From an uncultured Pseudobdellovibrionaceae bacterium (GTDB taxonomy: Bacteria > Bdellovibrionota > Bdellovibrionia > Bdellovibrionales > UBA1609): 64,000 nucleotides of DNA. The notes under the pieces are model-generated. The model was not told the origin of the DNA and searched no databases. It worked only from the letters and a program-made list of their open reading frames with translations. Shown here piece after piece: positions 3,051 through 18,878 of this stretch; within the stretch, counting starts at the first letter, position 1, and each line of letters starts with the position of its first letter. The stretch lies in NCBI GenBank assembly GCA_964389375.1, contig CAYMDP010000004.1, positions 18,507 to 82,506 of the forward strand, in the 5' to 3' direction. A program made the position numbers and the translations under genes.

Positions 3051-3566
3051 TTAGACTTGAATGTGAGAGAGATAGAATTTCAATTCGTCGATGCTTTCTA
3101 AAATGTCATCTAGGGCCCGGTGGGCTGTTTTTTTCTTGTACTGAAGGTTATAGATGTTGTTGAAGATGATCTTCCAAGATGTGACATCGAGCATGCGGTA
3201 GTGAAGCCGTTCAGAAAAACGCTTAAAGTACCGGTCGATGAAAAGGCGATCTTGTCCGATAGAGTTTCCGGCCAGGATCACCTTTTCGTTTAAAAAATGC
3301 TTATCTAAAAACTCGAGCATTTCATTTTCCACTAGATTGGGTTCGAGGCCAGAGGGAATTTTGTCGATTAAACCAGAATCACCGTGGTGTTTTTTGTTCC
3401 AGTCATCCATCCCATCGATCAGATGCTGGGGCTGCTTTATTATGGCGTGATATTGGTCAATAGCCTCAAATTTAAGGTCGGTGGCGATCATTGCGACTTC
3501 AATGACAACCTCCTTCTCAACTTCAAGCCCCGTCATCTCCATATCGAGCCACAGTAGTTTTTCCAT
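3051..3566 (-). CDS. orn: Oligoribonuclease
   Basis: 171 aa. LWLDMEMTGL (DEDD exo motif I) and HRALDDILESI (H-x4-D motif III). Length and collinearity fit the Orn family. Confidence 0.9.
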   Translation of the reverse strand: MEKLLWLDMEMTGLEVEKEVVIEVAMIATDLKFEAIDQYHAIIKQPQHLIDGMDDWNKKHHGDSGLIDKIPSGLEPNLVENEMLEFLDKHFLNEKVILAGNSIGQDRLFIDRYFKRFSERLHYRMLDVTSWKIIFNNIYNLQYKKKTAHRALDDILESIDELKFYLSHIQV

Positions 3567-3614
3567 CAGTTTCGTTCCTCCAAAATTACGCGGCTGGCGT
3601 CAGCTAGGATGTGT

Positions 3615-3956
3615 CTATTCATTTACAAAAACCAGCAAAACGCCTTCGTTTGCCTTTCCGTTGGGCATTTTATCAACTTGAAAGGGGTAGCCGGCCTGTT
3701 TTAAATATTTTTCTGCCTCTTCGCGCACAATTCCTGAGCCTTTTCCGGTCATAATTCTAAGGCGCTTGGTTCCTTTTTGTGAATGAGAGTGGATAAAACG
3801 GTCCATCTCATCCCAAACCTCATCTCGAGTTCGTCCATGAAGGTCAAGAGTTGGGGTCTTTTCGGGACCAGGCTTTTTAGTGTTCTTTTGTCCCAAGGGG
3901 TCTCCAAAATTCAAAAGCACAAGAAGGTGCGGCACAAAACTCAAGGCACAAAACAA
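3615..3956 (-). CDS. Smr domain protein
   Basis: LDLHGRTRDEVWDEMDRFI ... RIMTGKGSG matches the Smr core (LDLHG ... TGKG). 113 aa. Confidence 0.75.
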   Translation of the reverse strand: MFCALSFVPHLLVLLNFGDPLGQKNTKKPGPEKTPTLDLHGRTRDEVWDEMDRFIHSHSQKGTKRLRIMTGKGSGIVREEAEKYLKQAGYPFQVDKMPNGKANEGVLLVFVNE

Positions 3957-4158
3957 AACAAAACGTAATAGGTAAAGTGGAAGTAAAAATGATAGAGGAG
4001 AGCCTGTGTCGGATCAAGGCCACTTAGAAAAATAATGCTGCGATGCGCGTAAGATGATGGCCCAAGTTCCAGATTTTAGGGGTGAGTTCTGATTGATTTC
4101 GAGGCAATATTGTTGGGCAATTTCTGAGGATTGATCGAGGATTCTTAAAGGAGTTTGA

Positions 4159-4938
4159 ATGCAGGACAGTCTGCGGGGATTAAACGCACTTGTTTGTGGA
4201 GCCTCTAAGGGTATTGGGCGGGCCACGGCGCTCGCATTGGCCGATCGTGGAGCCAGAGTGTGTCTACTTGCTAGAGATAGTCAGAGTTTAAAAACTGTCG
4301 AGTCAGAGCTTTCTGGAACTGGACATAAAAGTCTTTCGGCAGACTTATCTGATTTAAATTCTTTAAGTGCTAAGGTTCAAGAACTGCTTCAAGCATGGGG
4401 TGGAATTTCTATTTTAGTTTGCAACAGTGGTGGACCCAAAGGTGGACCTTTGCTTGAGGCCGCAGAGGAAGACTTTGTACAGGCTTTCAAATCCCATGTT
4501 CTGGCCAACCAACGTCTGGTTCAACTGATTGCACCGAACATGAAAGAAAAAAAGTACGGACGAATTATCAACGTTATCTCAACCTCAGTAAAAGCACCGA
4601 TTCCAAATCTTGGAGTCTCAAATACCATCCGCGGAGCCGTTGCCAGTTGGTCGAAGACTTTGGCATCTGAACTTGGACCCTTTGGTATTACAGTAAATAA
4701 TGTTCTTCCCGGTTTTACTCAGACCGAGCGCCTTGAGACCTTGTTAAGCCAATCCGCTAAAGCTCAAGGGATGGATCGGGCGAAGCTTGCTGAAGATTGG
4801 AAGAAAACAATTCCGGCGAGACGTTTTGCCGAAGCTTCAGAAACTGCGGACGCGATTGCATTTTTGGCAAGTCCCCAGGCTTCTTATATTAACGGAATTA
4901 ATCTGCCTGTCGATGGTGGCCGAACGGTGAGTCTATGA
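4159..4938 (+). CDS. Short-chain dehydrogenase/reductase (SDR) family oxidoreductase
   Basis: RBS AAAGGAG lies upstream of the ATG. ALVCGASKGIGRA is a Gly-rich dinucleotide motif and NSGG is present. Length 259 aa. The stop overlaps the next start (ATGA at 4935-4938). Confidence 0.8.
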   Translation: MQDSLRGLNALVCGASKGIGRATALALADRGARVCLLARDSQSLKTVESELSGTGHKSLSADLSDLNSLSAKVQELLQAWGGISILVCNSGGPKGGPLLEAAEEDFVQAFKSHVLANQRLVQLIAPNMKEKKYGRIINVISTSVKAPIPNLGVSNTIRGAVASWSKTLASELGPFGITVNNVLPGFTQTERLETLLSQSAKAQGMDRAKLAEDWKKTIPARRFAEASETADAIAFLASPQASYINGINLPVDGGRTVSL

Positions 4939-6143
4939 AGTTTGATGTATTTTTTTCGATCTGTCAGACCGAGGTCAATGGATATCTGCCTTCTGAGCGG
5001 GTGATGTTCGAAAATTTTTTTGATCAAGTCCGACTTGCAGATGAGTTGGAATATGAAACAGCCTGGATCGCAGAGACCCATTTGTCTTGTGAAACCCAGA
5101 AGAAAAATCCGAATGCGGTCATCCCTCATTTTATTGGCGAAATTGGCTTAAATACAGACATTCTGCAAATGGCTCACAAAGTTTTTGCTCAGACAAAAAA
5201 TATCCAAGTGGGATCGGCGATAAGAAATATTTTGTGCAATGGGGGGCCCATCGCCCATGCGGAAGCGGTGAAGACCTTTTTAAGCCTTCATGGATTAAAT
5301 CCTGCAGAAAAAAGAAGGCTGCATCTGGGCTTTGCCTCTGGTCGCTTTGAGTTTAGCAACAGACCTTATGGAATAGTCCCGCGTAACGATCTTGAGCAAG
5401 CAGCTTGGGGACCCTTAAAAGGAAAGATTCTTAGGCAGGGTACAGAAATCTTCTTAAGACTTCTTAAGGGCGAGACTTTAAGCTCTGAGGATATTCAGCC
5501 GATTATTTTAAAAGCTCAGGATTTTAGAAAAGAAGAAGAATGGAAAAAGGTTCAAGCCTTAAGCGAATCAAAGCAATCTGAAATTCAAATTCCCAGCTAT
5601 TGGAAATTTGAAAAATTGGCGACGATTCCTTTTGATGTACGCCTCGATCTTTTGCGGCTGGTGATTGGGACTCACGATCCCGAAACTCAAGTTTTGGCAA
5701 ATCAGCACTTGCCTGTTGGAGTCTTTAATCTTTCCATCACTCCACCAAAGGTGATTGAAGAGACCCATCAACGGATGAGTGAAAAGTATCACTCCAGTGG
5801 TGGTGCTTGGCGTAGAGAGTATATGCCAAGAACAGCGATGGTATTTTTAAATGAGGATCCAGAGCTAAACCCGGATCAGCAGAACGAGCAAGCCCATAAG
5901 ATGGCCACCGCCGCTTGGGAGAACTACTGGAAGGCGATGGAAGGGACCTTAGACAGTAAAAAAGTTGAAGAGGCCGTTGGAAATGCCCTTGTTGGGAATG
6001 CTGAAAAAATTGCGAGTCAGATTAAACAAAAATATCATCCTGAAGACCGACTGATGCTGTGGTTCGATTTTAATAACCACGATAACACTTTCATTAAACA
6101 AAGCATGAGGGCCTTTAAAGAAAAGGTAGTCCCCCTATTATGA
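4935..6143 (+). CDS. Luciferase-like (LLM class) flavin-dependent oxidoreductase
   Basis: 402 aa. The N-terminus MKFDVFFS...ADELEYETAWIAETH is typical of the bacterial luciferase-like family. Translationally coupled on both sides (ATGA overlaps at 4935 and 6140). Confidence 0.6.
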   Translation: MKFDVFFSICQTEVNGYLPSERVMFENFFDQVRLADELEYETAWIAETHLSCETQKKNPNAVIPHFIGEIGLNTDILQMAHKVFAQTKNIQVGSAIRNILCNGGPIAHAEAVKTFLSLHGLNPAEKRRLHLGFASGRFEFSNRPYGIVPRNDLEQAAWGPLKGKILRQGTEIFLRLLKGETLSSEDIQPIILKAQDFRKEEEWKKVQALSESKQSEIQIPSYWKFEKLATIPFDVRLDLLRLVIGTHDPETQVLANQHLPVGVFNLSITPPKVIEETHQRMSEKYHSSGGAWRREYMPRTAMVFLNEDPELNPDQQNEQAHKMATAAWENYWKAMEGTLDSKKVEEAVGNALVGNAEKIASQIKQKYHPEDRLMLWFDFNNHDNTFIKQSMRAFKEKVVPLL

Positions 6144-7582
6144 TCAAACTGCAAAACTTTATTCATGGCGAGTATGTTCCGCCTCAAAGCGGGAAGTATT
6201 TTGATAATTTTCTTCCGGCGACGGGAGAGGTCTACAGTCAGGTCCCGGATTCAAACGAACTCGACGTCGTTCTTGCGATTCAGAGTGCCTCAAAGGCTTT
6301 CGAAAAATGGTCCGAGATGAAAGTTAAAGAGCGCTCGCAGATTCTTTACCGAATTGCGGATTTGATTGAGTCAAAGCTTGATGACTTGGCCTTGGCAGAA
6401 AGTCGTGATGTTGGAAAGCCCTTAAAACTTGCTAGAGAACTTGATATCCCGAGGGCCTCAGAGAATTTTAGATTCTTCGCTGGCCGCATTCTTCACCATG
6501 AAGAGCGGGCCACTCATATGGACTCAAAGACTTTAAGCTATACAGTGCGAAGTCCCCTTGGCGTCACCGGGCTGATCTCCCCATGGAATCTTCCCCTTTA
6601 TCTTTTGACCTGGAAGATCGCTCCAGCTCTTGCTGTTGGCAATACTGCAGTTTGTAAGCCTTCGGAGGTCACGCCCATGACGGCCTATCTGCTAGGGCAG
6701 ATTTTTAACGAAGCCGGTCTTCCTCCCGGAGTTTGCAATATTGTTTTGGGAAAAGGCGATCCTGCAGGGCAAACTTTGGTCTCTCATCCAGGAGTTCCGT
6801 TAATTTCATTCACCGGTGGAACTGCGACCGGTGAAAAGGTTGGAGTTGAGGCTGCGAAGCACTTTAAAAAAGTGGGTCTTGAGCTTGGTGGAAAAAATGC
6901 AGCCATTGTTTTAAAGGACGCAGACTTAAAGCGAGCGGTTTCTGGAATTGTGCGCTCAAGTTTTTTAAACTCGGGTCAAATCTGTTTATGCAGCTCGAAA
7001 ATTTTGGTTCAAGAAGAAATCTATGAGCAGTTTTTAGAGCAATTTAAAATTGAAACAGAAAAACTTAAAATGGGCGATCCAGGTCAGTCAGATACCACAA
7101 TGGGTCCCTTAGCCAGTAAAGCCCATCTAGAAAAAGTAAAATCCGCTGTGGCTCAAGCCGTCAAGGATAAAGCAAAAGTAGTGACCGGCGGAGATGAGCC
7201 AAAACTGGATGAAGCTTTGAAGAATGGCTATTATTTTAAGCCGACCATTTTAACGGATCTTTCGAACTGCTCGGACCTTCATCAGACAGAGATTTTTGGG
7301 CCCGTTGTGACGGTTCAACCTTTTAAATATCCTCACGATGCGGTGAAGTGGGCGAATAATTCTCCCTATGGATTGTCCGCAAGTCTTTGGACTCAAGACC
7401 TTTCGAAAGCCCACCGAATTGCTCCGCAAATTGATGCTGGTACGGTGTGGGTGAACTGTTGGCTTCAAAGAGACCTTCGGATGCCCTTTGGGGGAATGAA
7501 GGCCTCGGGTCTTGGCCGCGAAGGCGGCGACGACTCAATTGATTTTTACACTGAGCAAAAGACGATTTGTATTCAACTTTAG
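6140..7582 (+). CDS. NAD-dependent aldehyde dehydrogenase, muconic-semialdehyde dehydrogenase-like (XylG/AmnC type)
   Basis: 480 aa. ELGGKNA, the catalytic-Cys region FLNSGQICLCSS and EIFGPV are hallmark ALDH motifs. It sits directly upstream of the LigB-type dioxygenase pair. Confidence 0.85.
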   Translation: MIKLQNFIHGEYVPPQSGKYFDNFLPATGEVYSQVPDSNELDVVLAIQSASKAFEKWSEMKVKERSQILYRIADLIESKLDDLALAESRDVGKPLKLARELDIPRASENFRFFAGRILHHEERATHMDSKTLSYTVRSPLGVTGLISPWNLPLYLLTWKIAPALAVGNTAVCKPSEVTPMTAYLLGQIFNEAGLPPGVCNIVLGKGDPAGQTLVSHPGVPLISFTGGTATGEKVGVEAAKHFKKVGLELGGKNAAIVLKDADLKRAVSGIVRSSFLNSGQICLCSSKILVQEEIYEQFLEQFKIETEKLKMGDPGQSDTTMGPLASKAHLEKVKSAVAQAVKDKAKVVTGGDEPKLDEALKNGYYFKPTILTDLSNCSDLHQTEIFGPVVTVQPFKYPHDAVKWANNSPYGLSASLWTQDLSKAHRIAPQIDAGTVWVNCWLQRDLRMPFGGMKASGLGREGGDDSIDFYTEQKTICIQL

Positions 7583-7591
7583 GAAAAGAGG

Positions 7592-8488
7592 TTGCAAGTG
7601 GCTAAGGGAAAGATCGTGGCGGGAGTTTTAGCGCCCCATCCGCCGCATTTGGTTTACGCTGAAAATCCAAAGCAAAATGAACCCAAGGCCGAATGCGGTT
7701 GGGAAACTTTGCGTTGGGCTTATGAAAGTTTAAGAAAAAGTTTAGAAAAAATTGAGTTTGATGTGCTTGTTATTCAATCTCCTCATTGGAGAACTCAAGT
7801 GGGGACTCATTTTTTGGGACTGCCGCACTTTAAGTCTTTAAGTGTTGATCCCATCTTCCCCAATCTTTTTCGTTATCACTACGACCTTAAGGTGGATGTG
7901 GATTTGGCAAAGATGATCCACGATGAGGCCAAAAACTCTGGGATGGTTGTTCGCATGATGGAGAATCCTGATTTTAGAGTCGACTATGGGACGATTGTGT
8001 CTTGTCATATGAGCCGACCTGCTTGGGATAAGCCCATCGTCGGGATATCCTCTCATGGAGCTGCAAAGTATTTTAATATGGAAGTCCTTCAAGCTGAAAT
8101 GTTTCAGCTGGGGGAAGCGACTAGAAAAGCCGTCGAGAAAAGTGGAAAGCGGGCAGTACTTCTTGCCAGTAACTCTTTATCTCATCGCCATTTTGTCACT
8201 GAAAGTGATCCACCAGAGGATATGAGTAAAGAGCATATCAATAGTCACAATCAATACCTTTGGGATATGAAGATGATTGATTTGATGAAACGAGGCAAAA
8301 CTAAGGAGTTGATCGATATTATTCCTGATTTTACCGAGCACGCCACCGCTGAAACTGATGGCGGAAGTTTATCTTGGATGTTGAGTGCAATGGGCTATCC
8401 GGACTTTCCTGCAAAAGTCCACGGATACGGAACGGTGATTGGCACTGGAAACGCGGTCGTCGAATGGAGAGAGGGAGCCACTTTATGA
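7592..8488 (+). CDS. Class III (LigB-type) extradiol dioxygenase, catalytic subunit (AmnB-like)
   Basis: 298 aa. VLAPHPPHL and VIQSPHWRT carry the conserved His residues of LigB-family catalytic subunits. ATGA coupling to the next gene at 8485-8488. Confidence 0.75.
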   Translation: MQVAKGKIVAGVLAPHPPHLVYAENPKQNEPKAECGWETLRWAYESLRKSLEKIEFDVLVIQSPHWRTQVGTHFLGLPHFKSLSVDPIFPNLFRYHYDLKVDVDLAKMIHDEAKNSGMVVRMMENPDFRVDYGTIVSCHMSRPAWDKPIVGISSHGAAKYFNMEVLQAEMFQLGEATRKAVEKSGKRAVLLASNSLSHRHFVTESDPPEDMSKEHINSHNQYLWDMKMIDLMKRGKTKELIDIIPDFTEHATAETDGGSLSWMLSAMGYPDFPAKVHGYGTVIGTGNAVVEWREGATL

Positions 8489-9447
8489 TGAAAGCCTATG
8501 TTTTACCGGGGGTCCCCCATCCTTTGCTGGCTCCAAATCAAAATCCGGGCTGGAAGAAAATCCGCGAGGCTTACGATAAGGTTCGTCAAGAAATTGAGGC
8601 GCTGAATCCAGATGTACTGATGATCTACTCAACATATTGGCCCAGCGTGATCGGACATTTGATACAAGCTGATCCAAGTCCAGAATGGACCCATGTGGAT
8701 GAAGAGTTTCATTACCTCGGGTCCATTCCGTATAAATTGAAGATCGATACCAAACTTGCTGAAACCTACAAACAAGTGGCTTGTGAAAAGGGGCTTCACG
8801 CACGAACGGTCAGCTATAAGGGGTTTCCGATTGATACGGGCTCAGTCGTCTGCCTTAAACTTTTAAATCCAGACAATCGTTTTTCGGCTGTGATTACTTC
8901 GAGCAACGTTTATGCGGACCGGGCAGAGACGATTGTGCTTGGAAAATCTGCTCGTGAAGCGGTTGAAAAAGAAAATAAAACGGCGGTCGCGATTGTTGTA
9001 ACAAGTCTGAGCAATCGTCTTCATTCGGATTTTATTGATCCCAAAGACGATAAGATTCATTCCTTAAAAGATGAAGAGTGGAATAAAAAGTTTTTAGAGT
9101 TTTTTGAAGCGGGACGGCTAGAAGATATCTCACAACTCTCGAGGCAATTTCATCGCGAAGCTCGGGTACACAAGGTTTCAAACTTTAAACCTTTTTGGTG
9201 GCTTGCTTCCGTGATGGGCCAGAACAACAAGTATCTTGGCGAAATTTTAGAATACCAGCCCATCTTTGGCAGCGGAGCTGCAGTCATTGGGCTGACACCA
9301 ACAGAAAAAGCGGCCAGAGACTTAGAGTTTGATGAAGAAGATCCTAGCTTTTATCCGGGCGAGCGAAATGTCTTGGACAGCCTTGGAAAAGATCCCGGCT
9401 CAGATGGCTTTGAATTCGCTGAAGATGGAAATGTAAATGGAGATTAA
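8485..9447 (+). CDS. LigB-family paralogue, probable non-catalytic subunit (AmnA-like)
   Basis: Start moved to the ATG at 8485 (MMKAYVLPGVPHPLL), in frame with track ORF 8374. It is collinear with the upstream subunit, but the SPHW His is replaced (IYSTYWPS) and PHPPH becomes PHPLL. Confidence 0.65.
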   Translation: MMKAYVLPGVPHPLLAPNQNPGWKKIREAYDKVRQEIEALNPDVLMIYSTYWPSVIGHLIQADPSPEWTHVDEEFHYLGSIPYKLKIDTKLAETYKQVACEKGLHARTVSYKGFPIDTGSVVCLKLLNPDNRFSAVITSSNVYADRAETIVLGKSAREAVEKENKTAVAIVVTSLSNRLHSDFIDPKDDKIHSLKDEEWNKKFLEFFEAGRLEDISQLSRQFHREARVHKVSNFKPFWWLASVMGQNNKYLGEILEYQPIFGSGAAVIGLTPTEKAARDLEFDEEDPSFYPGERNVLDSLGKDPGSDGFEFAEDGNVNGD

Positions 9448-9448
9448 G

Positions 9449-10531
9449 ATGCCTTATTCGGTTAAGGATATTTATCCATCCGACCCCTTAGGACAATCTC
9501 AAAAAGGAATTCCAACGGGACGAGATGTCGAGTGGGAACCCTTGGTGGATTACCGCCGAAATGGGGTCAGTGAAAATACGGTTCACGGAGCCTTGGCTTG
9601 GTATTCGGGCAACAAGTTGATTCATTCCTTTGGGGGAAACGTTCTGTGTTATGGCCGAAGTATGATGAAGCCCTTTTATATCAAGGTTTTTTCGAAAGAA
9701 CTGGAGGCCGTGACAGATTGGCGCCAAAGAGCCATTAGTATTTCAAGTCATAACGGCACTGCAGAACACGTCGAGGTCTCTCAGTCTCTTTTAAGCGAAA
9801 GTGAATGGGGCTTGATGCAAACCCCTCTTGATTTGCCATTGGTGCAATTTGGCAGACAAGTTCGCAGACCCCGGCGCTGGTTTAATAATTCTTCTGGCCA
9901 CCATGCCGCAATTTTAAAAGGCTGTAGACTTAAAGGATGGAATCGCGCCGGCTACACTTTGCCAAGCCATCCACTTTTCGAAGAATATCTAAAGATCGTT
10001 CGAAGTTACTTAGGCGAGAATTTTAAGGCCCTTCGAGTAGCCAAAGACGGCGATGGGCTTCCGACCTGCTCGATGACAGTGAACGAACTGGCTCAGTGTT
10101 ATGCAGGCCTTGCGAAAAGAAAAAACGAAGACTGGATCTGGGAGAGTTTTATTCGTCATCCTGATTTAGTTGGGGGCTTTAATCGACTCGATACAACGGT
10201 CATTAAGTCCGGACGGGGAAAAGTGATTGCAAAAGAAGGTGCGGATGGTTTGCTTGGAATGGCCATCGAGCATCCCGATTATCCTGATGGTCTTGGTGTT
10301 GTGATTAAAATAGCTCATGGCTGGAATCCCCAAGCGACTTGGTATGTGGCTCGAGGGATTTTGGGAGTTTTAGGAATTGAACTTAGAAATCCCTATCCTT
10401 TAAAAAGGCAAAAAGCTTTTTTAGTTCCGGGCGTTGTTCCACCGAATCTATTAGAAAAACTTAAAAGGGTTTTGACTTGGGACGAGTGGGATCCTGATCA
10501 TGACCGCTGGTATGGAGAAACGAATGTCTAA
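9449..10531 (+). CDS. Asparaginase_II (PF06089-like) family amidohydrolase homologue
   Basis: The ATG at 9449 has GGAG 8 nt upstream. Blocks ENTVHGA, RSMMKP, SSHNGTAEH, YTLPSHP, HPDLVGG, AKEGADGLLGMA and GVVIKIAHG are collinear with Rhizobium-type asparaginase II as I recall it. Confidence 0.65.
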   Translation: MPYSVKDIYPSDPLGQSQKGIPTGRDVEWEPLVDYRRNGVSENTVHGALAWYSGNKLIHSFGGNVLCYGRSMMKPFYIKVFSKELEAVTDWRQRAISISSHNGTAEHVEVSQSLLSESEWGLMQTPLDLPLVQFGRQVRRPRRWFNNSSGHHAAILKGCRLKGWNRAGYTLPSHPLFEEYLKIVRSYLGENFKALRVAKDGDGLPTCSMTVNELAQCYAGLAKRKNEDWIWESFIRHPDLVGGFNRLDTTVIKSGRGKVIAKEGADGLLGMAIEHPDYPDGLGVVIKIAHGWNPQATWYVARGILGVLGIELRNPYPLKRQKAFLVPGVVPPNLLEKLKRVLTWDEWDPDHDRWYGETNV

Positions 10532-10943
10532 CTCAATTCACAGTAAAAAAGCCCCAGAACCTGTAGGGCCCTATCCACACGCAAGGCGTGTAGGGGATTT
10601 TATTTTTGTTTCCGGCATGGGCCCAAGAAAACTTGGGAGTAAAGATATTCCAGGAGTTTTTACTGATGCCGAAGGCACAGTTGTTGCTCATGACATCGAA
10701 GTTCAGACCAGAGCCACAATCGAAAACATTCGTCTGGTTTTGGAAGAGTGCGGAGCGGGACTTGAAGACATCGTGGATATGACCGTTTTTTTAACTCACA
10801 TGAAAGAAGACTTTAAAACCATGAACCGAGTTTACGCCGAGTACTTTTCTGAAAAAGCTCCGACTCGGACCACAGTCGAGGTTTTAAGTTTACCGACACC
10901 GATAGCCATCGAATTAAAGGCCATTGCCTTTCGTCCAGTTTAA
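10524..10943 (+). CDS. RidA/YjgF family deaminase (AmnD-like position)
   Basis: The ATG at 10524 follows GGAGAAACGA. APEPVGPYPHARRVGDFIFVSG and TRTTVEV are typical RidA blocks. It overlaps the upstream stop by 8 nt. Confidence 0.85.
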   Translation: MSNSIHSKKAPEPVGPYPHARRVGDFIFVSGMGPRKLGSKDIPGVFTDAEGTVVAHDIEVQTRATIENIRLVLEECGAGLEDIVDMTVFLTHMKEDFKTMNRVYAEYFSEKAPTRTTVEVLSLPTPIAIELKAIAFRPV

Positions 10944-18182: not shown

Positions 18183-18878
18183 TTAAACTTTGTGGACGAC
18201 TTTCTCGAAGGGCAGTCTAAATCTCGGACCCCAAGTTCCGCGCTCGCCTTCATAACCAACTCCTATCATCATGACGATTCGGGCTGATGAGCCTAACTTT
18301 AAAAGTCGCTTCATTCGGACTTCGTCAAAACCCTCCATCATGCAACTCGCTCCACCAAGTGCGGTGACCGCAAGAACAAAATTTTCGGCGGCAAGAGCTG
18401 CGGACTTGATGACCACTTCTTGCAGATGTCCGCGAGTTCCGGCCCCTCTAGTGATCGGCCTGAATAATCCAACTAAAAACAATGGCAGCCATTTAAAAGG
18501 TGCCAGAATATTAAAAAGCCCCCATCGATAACTGACTGGAATTAGATTTTGATAGTAAAATAATACGGGCTTTGGAGCCTTCGATTCTTCAACCCATTTT
18601 ACCAAAGGTCCTTGAGAGCGGCGCCAAAGTTTTGGATCGGCAACAACTGCAATTAACTGAGTGGCTGTGCGCGCGGCCGATTGGTTAAAACAATTCTCCT
18701 GGGCTTTTTTTAAAACTTCAGGATTCTTAATCCAGTAAAAATCCCAGGCTTGGACGTTGGAAGAGTTCGGAGCAAGAATCGCCGCCTTGAGCGCTTTTTC
18801 TATAGATTCGTCAGGGAAGAGTTCGGGCTTGAACTTCCGAATGCTTCTACGTTTTTCGACAACCTCAAAAAAATCCAA
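18183..18878 (-). CDS. Nitroreductase family protein
   Basis: TTG start preceded by GGGAGGGG. The N-terminus EKRRSIRKF is typical of the nitroreductase fold family. 231 aa. Confidence 0.75.
   Translation of the reverse strand: MDFFEVVEKRRSIRKFKPELFPDESIEKALKAAILAPNSSNVQAWDFYWIKNPEVLKKAQENCFNQSAARTATQLIAVVADPKLWRRSQGPLVKWVEESKAPKPVLFYYQNLIPVSYRWGLFNILAPFKWLPLFLVGLFRPITRGAGTRGHLQEVVIKSAALAAENFVLAVTALGGASCMMEGFDEVRMKRLLKLGSSARIVMMIGVGYEGERGTWGPRFRLPFEKVVHKV

Follow-up and report, generated by a model that had tools for sequence, protein, structure and literature searches.

Why a chromosomal operon of an uncultured Pseudobdellovibrionaceae bacterium carries the ring-cleavage enzymes of aminophenol degraders, and not their lower pathway, is the question raised by a 64,000-nucleotide stretch of contig CAYMDP010000004.1 (assembly GCA_964389375.1, positions 18,507 to 82,506), hereafter called the window. 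Seven plus-strand open reading frames (ORFs) at 4159-10943 encode, in this order, a short-chain dehydrogenase/reductase (SDR), a divergent protein of the luciferase-like monooxygenase family (LLM), an aldehyde dehydrogenase (ALDH), two LigB-type proteins (AmnB and AmnA), an Asparaginase_II-family protein (AsnII) and a RidA protein, all tightly packed on one strand. With a probability of roughly 55%, we consider this operon to be the core of a tryptophan (kynurenine) catabolism that reaches the Amn-type meta-cleavage enzymes by an undescribed route. A fuller version of the idea has, in our estimate, somewhat less than even chances: an undescribed, phylogenetically widespread tryptophan route, in which LLM as a Baeyer-Villiger monooxygenase (BVMO) and AsnII would split kynurenine to L-aspartate and 2-aminophenol, bypassing kynurenine 3-monooxygenase (KMO), kynureninase, 3-hydroxyanthranilate 3,4-dioxygenase (HAO) and aminocarboxymuconate-semialdehyde decarboxylase (ACMSD), with a natural role for AmnB and AmnA and an SDR exit from 2-oxohex-3-enedioate that needs no decarboxylase. 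Support is good both for the gene cluster and for its connection to tryptophan; the specific chemistry (Baeyer-Villiger oxidation by LLM, hydrolysis by AsnII) stands at roughly even odds.

Conservation of the gene set and its link to tryptophan

Relatives of LLM were collected in a species-level scan with one genome per GTDB species and found in 373 genomes; among 8000 candidates scored, 4805 cluster representatives matched at E<=0.001, mostly labelled Bdellovibrionales or Pseudobdellovibrionaceae. The best 80 loci (numbered with an L below) were fetched and compared with the seven window proteins by tblastn, while the tabulation of SDR, DmpH and DmpE covers 81 loci. Most of them come from metagenome-assembled genomes (MAGs), whose taxonomic labels and binning are uncertain. 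All seven genes were present in 40 of the 80 fetched loci, many others being cut by contig ends, and because the same set recurs to this extent, the seven-gene arrangement is far beyond chance.

Two gene orders were recognized. The order of the window, SDR-LLM-ALDH-AmnB-AmnA-AsnII-RidA (order 1), is shared with loci mostly labelled Bdellovibrionales or Pseudobdellovibrionaceae, and the order SDR-LLM-AsnII-ALDH-AmnB-AmnA::RidA (order 2) is found in MAGs labelled Oligoflexus, Bacteriovoracia and Bdellovibrionales, some also Thermoanaerobaculia. The LLM gene of L068 and L069 runs divergently to its six partners. The set was thus kept through rearrangement across this breadth, which argues for one functional unit and not for a recently acquired xenobiotic module. 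Genes inserted into variant clusters were considered as a functional clue and set aside, being unrelated lipoproteins, a phytase-like protein and similar.

The link to tryptophan came from the flanks of these loci. In L079 the LLM, ALDH and RidA genes are flanked by genes for a tryptophan 2,3-dioxygenase (TDO) and a cyclase-family protein, with two fumarylacetoacetate-hydrolase-family genes running divergently; in L059, genes for LLM, AsnII and a cyclase of the kynurenine formamidase (KynB) type follow in order. The TDO assignment rests on PF03301 (E 2e-57) and TIGR03036, and the cyclases belong to PF04199, their only NCBIfam match being arylformamidase TIGR03035 at 195-205 bits, just under the cutoff. 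Over all, a KynB gene adjoins the cluster in 21 loci, a TDO gene lies directly upstream in six and a DmpH/DmpE-like (decarboxylase/hydratase) pair is present in five. The reach of the cluster beyond Bdellovibrionota emerged from more distant AsnII relatives: a Thermoplasmata MAG (L088) reads TDO-x-LLM-AsnII-x-ALDH-x-AmnB-x-AmnA::RidA-KynB with an SDR gene downstream, thereby carrying both TDO and KynB, and a 6.9-Mb genome (L087) reads LLM-ALDH...AsnII-AmnB-AmnA::RidA-KynB. Directly after KynB, L068 (11876-13042), L069 (11929-13083) and L080 (3984-5165) each encode PurT, the formate-dependent glycinamide ribonucleotide transformylase, above its NCBIfam cutoff; this neighbourhood suggests salvage of N-formylkynurenine formate into purine synthesis.

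Kynureninase, KMO, the cupin-type HAO and ACMSD were seen neither in the Pfam-annotated loci (L001, L086-L090) nor in the gene families that recur as neighbours across the 80 loci, a survey of locus flanks, so that these genes could lie elsewhere in the genomes. Since orthologues of the operon are physically linked to TDO and KynB genes in many genomes, its substrate is most likely tryptophan-derived. With no middle enzymes seen, LLM, AsnII and SDR are the only ones left to connect kynurenine with the substrate of the AmnB/AmnA pair; most likely, the three extra enzymes lead from kynurenine to 2-aminophenol and deal with what the pathway finally yields. The first-pass annotation of this DNA, made from its letters and ORF translations, had proposed an upper aminophenol-type module. 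Its Amn enzymes and its lack of a lower pathway held up, and its picture of an orphan module for an unknown aminophenol did not, given the TDO and KynB genes beside the orthologues.

The LLM and AsnII genes are adjacent in the order-2 loci (including those labelled Oligoflexus), in L059, in Alteromonas sp. a30, in L088 and in L089, as is expected for consecutive steps. The isolate Alteromonas sp. a30 (L086 8740-10945, GCA_026788005.1) harbours the LLM-AsnII pair about 1 kb from a contig end with no Amn genes nearby and, as a cultured carrier, is convenient for testing both proposed new steps. L089 (518-3424 and 7894-12540) contains SDR-LLM-AsnII-ALDH and, a few kb away, genes for phenylalanine hydroxylase, a 4-hydroxyphenylpyruvate dioxygenase-like protein and homogentisate dioxygenase; the region looks like an aromatic amino acid catabolic island.

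Predicted ring cleavage and the steps that would follow it

Direct reading of the junctions bore out the seven ORFs, their coordinates, the overlaps and the single 9-nt gap that had been annotated. SDR and LLM share an ATGA overlap at 4935, as do LLM and ALDH at 6140 and AmnB and AmnA at 8485. ALDH and AmnB are separated by the 9-nt gap (7582 to 7592), with the TTG start of AmnB preceded by a good ribosome-binding site (GGAAAAGAGG). AmnA stops at 9447 and AsnII starts with an ATG at 9449 (an alternative, overlapping ATG lies at 9437), and AsnII overlaps RidA by 8 nt (10524-10531). Terminator-like sites within the block numbered 10 against 9.4 expected from shuffled sequence, which is no excess. 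Pfam confirmed every family named beforehand (hidden Markov models PF02900, PF00171, PF01042, PF00296, PF06089 and PF13561), the products being assigned in gene order to adh_short_C2, Bac_luciferase, Aldedh, LigB, LigB, Asparaginase_II and Ribonuc_L-PSP; the scores were 158 bits for PF13561/PF00106, 582 for PF00171, 91 and 80 for the two PF02900 matches, 150 for PF06089 and 100 for PF01042.

Assignment is clearest for the two LigB proteins. AmnB (7592-8488, 298 aa) is the predicted catalytic beta subunit of a 2-aminophenol 1,6-dioxygenase, matching PDB entries of this enzyme end to end (8ihg_A, E 1.4e-114; 3vsg_B, E 6.6e-111; 7txy_B, E 3e-102). Comparison with two classical reference clusters, on pCNB1 of Comamonas CNB-1 and on a Pseudomonas veronii plasmid from an aniline-contaminated site, gave 55-58% identity to CnbCb and to P. 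veronii AmnB. The quoted motifs APHPPH and SPHW are present and, together with LSHxHF and AE, identical in alignments with 8ihg_A and 3vsg_B; from CnbC structures, we take them to provide the metal-binding His/His/Glu and the catalytic His. In a neighbour-joining tree, a rough distance tree, the two xenobiotic AmnBs were sister to all AmnBs of window-type loci. AmnA (8485-9447, 320 aa), the predicted non-catalytic alpha subunit, overlaps the AmnB stop codon, has its His motifs replaced by PHPLL and STYW as had been read, matches 3vsg_A (E 6e-45), 7txy_A (E 2.6e-43) and 8ihg_B (E 4.3e-39), and shares 32-34% identity with the AmnA proteins of the classical clusters. With best PDB matches to 2-aminophenol 1,6-dioxygenases at E 1e-114 to 1e-102, the proposal of a genuine AmnB/AmnA-type pair is upheld at the level of family assignment from sequence; the pair did not group with protocatechuate, gallate or DOPA dioxygenases, the homoprotocatechuate dioxygenase HpaD (8iq8) matching AmnB at E 8e-10 only. 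AmnA ends in an acidic stretch of about 50 aa (DLEFDEEDPSFYPGERNVLDSLGKDPGSDGFEFAEDGNVNGD, window 9290-9447) that has no counterpart in the AmnA/CnbCa chains of solved structures (271-279 aa) and may be left over from the linker of an AmnA::RidA fusion.

The two following enzymes are probably of Amn type as well, as first supposed. ALDH (6140-7582, 480 aa), a predicted member of the AmnC or 2-aminomuconic 6-semialdehyde dehydrogenase type, shares 44% identity with CnbD and 40% with P. veronii AmnC; among NCBIfam models, the hydroxymuconic semialdehyde dehydrogenase TIGR03216 scores best, with 553 bits where the cutoff is 693, and HpaE scores nearly as high. RidA (10524-10943, 139 aa), a predicted member of the AmnD or 2-aminomuconate deaminase type, was compared with both RidA proteins of the P. 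veronii amn cluster: identity is 47% with the one in AmnD position and 27% with the second. Its second-best PDB match is 2-aminomuconate deaminase 6izh_A (E 1.3e-26), just behind an uncharacterised archaeal RidA, and its score with TIGR00004 was 106.2 at a cutoff of 106.25. AmnA and RidA form one ORF (LigB plus Ribonuc_L-PSP) in 18 of 18 order-2 loci (L009, L024, L025, L029, L031, L032, L034, L036, L037, L040, L054, L061, L064, L074-L077 and L081) and in the two distant genomes L087 (12054-13439) and L088 (15027-16463), and this fusion implies a physical coupling of ring cleavage with deamination. In the window, the AsnII gene separates those of AmnA (8485-9447) and RidA (10524-10943).

Beyond the deaminase, the window offers no classical continuation. 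Searched by tblastn, the 64 kb gave no match to a decarboxylase, hydratase, tautomerase, aldolase, acylating dehydrogenase or CnbZ amidase from either classical cluster, nor to the DmpH/DmpE-like proteins of L079, in agreement with the lack of a lower pathway claimed at first. The SDR (4159-4938, 259 aa, classical type) had only generic FabG-like matches in NCBIfam and PDB. At a threshold of at least 35% identity it was detected in 62 of the 81 tabulated loci and not in the other 19. All five loci with a DmpH/DmpE-like pair (best matches TIGR03218/TIGR03220) are among these 19, and the pair is found in the flanks of none of the 62 SDR loci. This alternation favours a role of the SDR after the deaminase, a step that, as the weakest inference of the scheme, would account for the missing lower pathway of the window. 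No aldolase or acylating dehydrogenase stands beside the DmpH/DmpE-like pair, its neighbours being unrelated or unknown proteins. In L037, an order-2 locus without upstream TDO, an FMO-like flavin monooxygenase gene (3584-4921) lies next to the pair. A function of the SDR as flavin reductase of LLM was judged unlikely: LLM occurs without SDR in loci such as L032, L037, L048, L054, L079 and L086, and the two genes are transcribed away from each other in L068 and L069.

A candidate route from kynurenine to 2-aminophenol

In the route that we propose, TDO and kynurenine formamidase would yield L-kynurenine (step 1), their genes being located in cis in other lineages and presumed for this genome. 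LLM, FMN-dependent and supplied with reduced flavin and O2, would then carry out a Baeyer-Villiger reaction on kynurenine, placing an oxygen atom between its ring and the carbonyl group of its side chain (step 2), with L-kynurenine or, alternatively, N-formylkynurenine as substrate. The product would be the beta-(2-aminophenyl) ester of aspartate, which an acyl shift to the neighbouring amine could convert into N4-(2-hydroxyphenyl)-asparagine. AsnII would hydrolyse the ester or the anilide via a beta-aspartyl-enzyme to L-aspartate and 2-aminophenol (step 3). From there on, family assignments by sequence suggest the reactions: AmnB/AmnA would open 2-aminophenol, its presumed substrate, to 2-aminomuconic 6-semialdehyde (step 4), ALDH would oxidise the semialdehyde to 2-aminomuconate (step 5), and the AmnD-type RidA would release ammonium to leave 2-oxohex-3-enedioate (step 6). 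Finally, the SDR may reduce 2-oxohex-3-enedioate with NAD(P)H towards 2-oxoadipate or a hydroxy acid (step 7, the least secure of all), replacing the 4-oxalocrotonate decarboxylase/hydratase pair of other lineages. Baeyer-Villiger oxidation and hydrolysis were chosen because they are the simplest chemistry that uses the LLM and asparaginase families as they are known to work. The earlier guess of an amide-bearing aromatic substrate comes close to this proposal. An analogy to the Rut pathway (LLM, amidohydrolase, RidA, SDR) was dropped in view of the TDO/KynB linkage and a hydrolase that is not RutB-like. Among searchable full texts, which are incomplete, no paper was found that describes the cluster or the route, including in searches on Bdellovibrio with 2-aminophenol, nor one that connects kynurenine with a luciferase-like enzyme, AmnB or a Baeyer-Villiger path to 2-aminophenol.

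For LLM (4935-6143, 402 aa), the Pfam match to PF00296 is confined to the N-terminal part at 35 bits (cutoff 27.9), and an LLM profile found no significant match among PDB sequences. With a confident AlphaFold2 model (predicted local distance difference test, pLDDT, 87.5), a Foldseek search returned 58 PDB matches at E<=1e-3, of which the 50 listed were all LLM proteins. A probability of 1.0 was reached by RslO1, luciferases, Mer and the type II BVMOs 4uwm and 5aec; RslO1, luciferases and Mer rank above the type II BVMOs, to which identity is 13-15%. The predicted model thus confirms an LLM fold for the protein and does not discriminate function among LLM proteins. Luciferase uses the same peroxyflavin chemistry as is proposed here. 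An insertion of 25 residues after the second barrel strand (residues 48-72, window 5076-5150), nearly invariant in 15 homologues and modelled at a pLDDT near 50, is probably a subfamily-specific mobile active-site loop. As to flavin supply, members of the nitroreductase family can serve as NAD(P)H:flavin reductases, and one such gene lies at 18183-18878 of the window on the minus strand, 7 kb downstream of the operon; it is not conserved beside the cluster in other loci. The same holds for a Fre-like flavin reductase gene (FAD_binding_6 plus NAD_binding_1) located just upstream, on the opposite strand, near the L089 cluster.

AsnII (9449-10531, alternative start 9437; 360 aa), a Ser-Lys hydrolase resembling class 3 asparaginases, surpasses the other six proteins in conservation, with up to 83% identity across the fetched loci, and matches the Rhizobium etli asparaginases ReAIV and ReAV distantly (E 2e-14). 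ReAV works via a beta-aspartyl-enzyme intermediate, using two Ser-Lys tandems, with Arg47 holding the alpha-carboxylate of L-asparagine and a zinc site of Cys135/Lys138/Cys189 anchoring that substrate (PMC12292245). In ReAV numbering, Arg47-Ser48-x-x-Lys51, Ser80 and Lys263 are invariant in 48 orthologues (R-S-M-M-K, S-H-N and K-E-G-A-D-G), which makes a beta-aspartyl substrate plausible. The zinc-ligand positions read Ser/His/Asp in 32 of the 48 orthologues, the window protein included, and Cys, Lys or Glu, Cys in 16 order-2 orthologues; the triad hence covaries with gene order, and the catalytic Ser-Lys tandems never change. By its residues, the protein ought not to be classed as a true L-asparaginase, as the zinc site of that enzyme is not kept in the window clade. 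A role of AsnII as formamidase was rejected, since order-2 loci carry both AsnII and KynB.

Several points weigh against the tryptophan route as we draw it. The 64 kb window contains no TDO or KynB gene, so that the tryptophan link of this genome is by orthology only, and the case for steps 2, 3 and 7 consists solely of genomic context and chemical reasoning. Baeyer-Villiger enzymes do not stand out in the fold search, the LLM sequence is too divergent to show flavin binding (the 35 bits in Pfam and the lack of a PDB sequence match), and no flavin reductase gene belongs to the conserved set of the loci. Amino-acid recognition by AsnII may differ from that of ReAV. Furthermore, the complementarity of SDR and DmpH/DmpE may reflect one or two evolutionary events, the five loci probably being close relatives.

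Alternative readings, related systems and setting

In the main alternative, the same gene set and its TDO/KynB linkage would be accounted for if LLM were a kynurenine C3 hydroxylase, that is, a non-homologous KMO analogue, with AmnB/AmnA cleaving 3-hydroxykynurenine and AsnII acting as a C-C hydrolase in the manner of meta-cleavage product hydrolases. L-aspartate would then leave via the beta-aspartyl-enzyme, and 2-aminomuconic semialdehyde would remain for ALDH and RidA. With the catalytic residues and Arg47 conserved, aspartate from an asparaginase-like acyl-enzyme is chemically coherent. We nevertheless hold it to be unlikely: aromatic hydroxylation is, to our knowledge, not a reaction of LLM enzymes, AmnB is 55-58% identical to enzymes acting on small 2-aminophenols, and the repeated adjacency of LLM and AsnII, in L059 and Alteromonas a30 without AmnB/AmnA nearby, fits consecutive steps better. 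Another way to deliver 2-aminophenol to the dioxygenase, equally compatible with the TDO/KynB linkage, would combine a kynureninase encoded elsewhere, forming anthranilate, with an oxidative decarboxylation by LLM, AsnII serving an unrelated nitrogen salvage. This leaves the most conserved protein of the set and its tight pairing with LLM unexplained, kynureninase was not seen in any annotated locus or recurrent neighbour family, and we know of no LLM enzyme that performs decarboxylative hydroxylation; we regard it as very improbable.

The window itself, devoid of TDO and KynB and with AmnB, AmnA, ALDH and RidA matching characterised amn/cnb enzymes, would also suit a self-contained module for the upper meta-cleavage steps of 2-aminophenols from the environment (derived from nitroarenes, benzoxazinoids or amides of aminophenol type), to which the extra enzymes would be accessory and tryptophan irrelevant. 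Such a module is quite unlikely when set against the conservation of the set across Bdellovibrionota-type genomes (LLM relatives in 373 species-level genomes), other phyla and one archaeal MAG, and against the TDO and KynB genes in cis in many orthologous loci; a mobile-element or regulator context as in the cnb/amn plasmid clusters was not seen, and the set is not accompanied by conserved nitroreductase/mutase genes or by hydrolases that generate aminophenols. The first-pass suggestion that the operon makes a metabolite found no support. A biosynthetic function could invoke the missing lower pathway of the window and the fact that 2-aminomuconic semialdehyde cyclises spontaneously to picolinate, the products being derived from picolinate, muconate or aminophenol. 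ALDH and a dedicated deaminase would, however, carry the intermediate beyond the picolinate branch point, the same genes sit in other lineages with the decarboxylase and hydratase of a catabolic lower pathway, and no tailoring, export, nonribosomal peptide synthetase or polyketide synthase genes are conserved with the set, which renders this reading the most remote of those considered.

As a whole, the operon is neither a cluster of the amn/nbz/cnb type, having no lower pathway, nor a canonical kynurenine cluster, in which the middle enzymes would not be missing. With the amn/nbz/cnb clusters (amnBACFEDHG type of Pseudomonas sp. AP-3; cnbCaCbD... of Comamonas CNB-1) it shares the succession AmnB-AmnA, together with an ALDH and a RidA that are probably of AmnC and AmnD type. 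In contrast to them, it is without decarboxylase, hydratase, aldolase, acylating dehydrogenase, tautomerase and CnbZ amidase, is chromosomal with no transposon or plasmid context, and its orthologues are linked to TDO and KynB, their AmnBs forming the sister clade to the xenobiotic ones. It adds SDR, LLM and Asparaginase_II, which were rightly called foreign to the described clusters, as the annotated cnb and amn reference clusters contain none of the three. Compared with the bacterial kynurenine pathway (Burkholderia cenocepacia cluster, nba genes), related loci likewise begin with TDO and KynB and their last enzymes are likewise a semialdehyde dehydrogenase and a deaminase of RidA type, to which some loci add DmpH/DmpE-type enzymes. 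KMO, kynureninase, the cupin HAO and ACMSD, however, are apparently replaced by LLM, AsnII and AmnB/AmnA, so that ring cleavage would act on 2-aminophenol and the side chain would be lost as aspartate and not as alanine and CO2.

On the level of mechanism, the 4-hydroxyacetophenone pathway of Pseudomonas fluorescens ACB, in which the BVMO HapE and the esterase HapD turn an aryl ketone into an aryl ester and further into phenol and acid, follows the same logic as proposed here, including later ring cleavage. The likeness is mechanistic only, as HapE is a type I FAD/NADPH BVMO and not an LLM protein, and HapD an esterase and not a PF06089 protein. The type II BVMOs (2,5- and 3,6-diketocamphane monooxygenases) share the LLM TIM-barrel fold with the predicted model of the window protein, which differs in its 25-residue insertion at 48-72 and has closer structural matches elsewhere. 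The class 3 L-asparaginases ReAIV and ReAV belong to the same PF06089 family and have the catalytic set that is invariant in AsnII, whereas AsnII is distant, carries Ser/His/Asp at the zinc triad in the window clade and is encoded inside an aromatic catabolic operon.

If the proposal is true, tryptophan degradation through kynurenine has a further, new branch, and two enzyme families of narrow known function each acquire a new activity: the class 3 asparaginases would act on a second class of substrates, and the LLM superfamily would include an amino-acid Baeyer-Villiger oxygenase. AmnBA-type dioxygenases, so far regarded as xenobiotic-degrading, would acquire a natural role, and the 2-aminophenol dioxygenases of nitrobenzene and chloronitrobenzene degraders a natural origin. 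Aspartate, and not alanine, would be the form in which carbon and nitrogen are regained from tryptophan, and the route would belong to the ways in which predatory Bdellovibrionota use the tryptophan of their prey. Every proposed step is testable with commercially available substrates. The AmnA::RidA fusion and the alternation of SDR with DmpH/DmpE bear on the fate of 2-aminomuconate, for which the gene of the subsequent animal step was assigned only in a 2026 preprint (10.64898/2026.06.05.730449).

With regard to its setting, the operon is preceded by an intergenic region (3957-4158, plus strand), a 200-bp gap after the divergent Smr gene, which presumably contains the promoter and holds an AAAGGAG ribosome-binding site for the SDR gene; no strong sigma-70 match was found on its plus strand. 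According to a partial Pfam survey, the rest of the window comprises housekeeping genes and the one nitroreductase-family gene, with no pathway-related genes elsewhere. Genes for an oligoribonuclease-like RNase_T protein and for the Smr-domain protein (window 3051-3956, minus strand; L001 2673-3895) are syntenic upstream in many Bdellovibrionales loci, and this synteny places the operon in a stable chromosomal backbone. Further upstream, related loci carry genes for S-adenosylhomocysteine (AdoHcy) hydrolase and methionine aminopeptidase.

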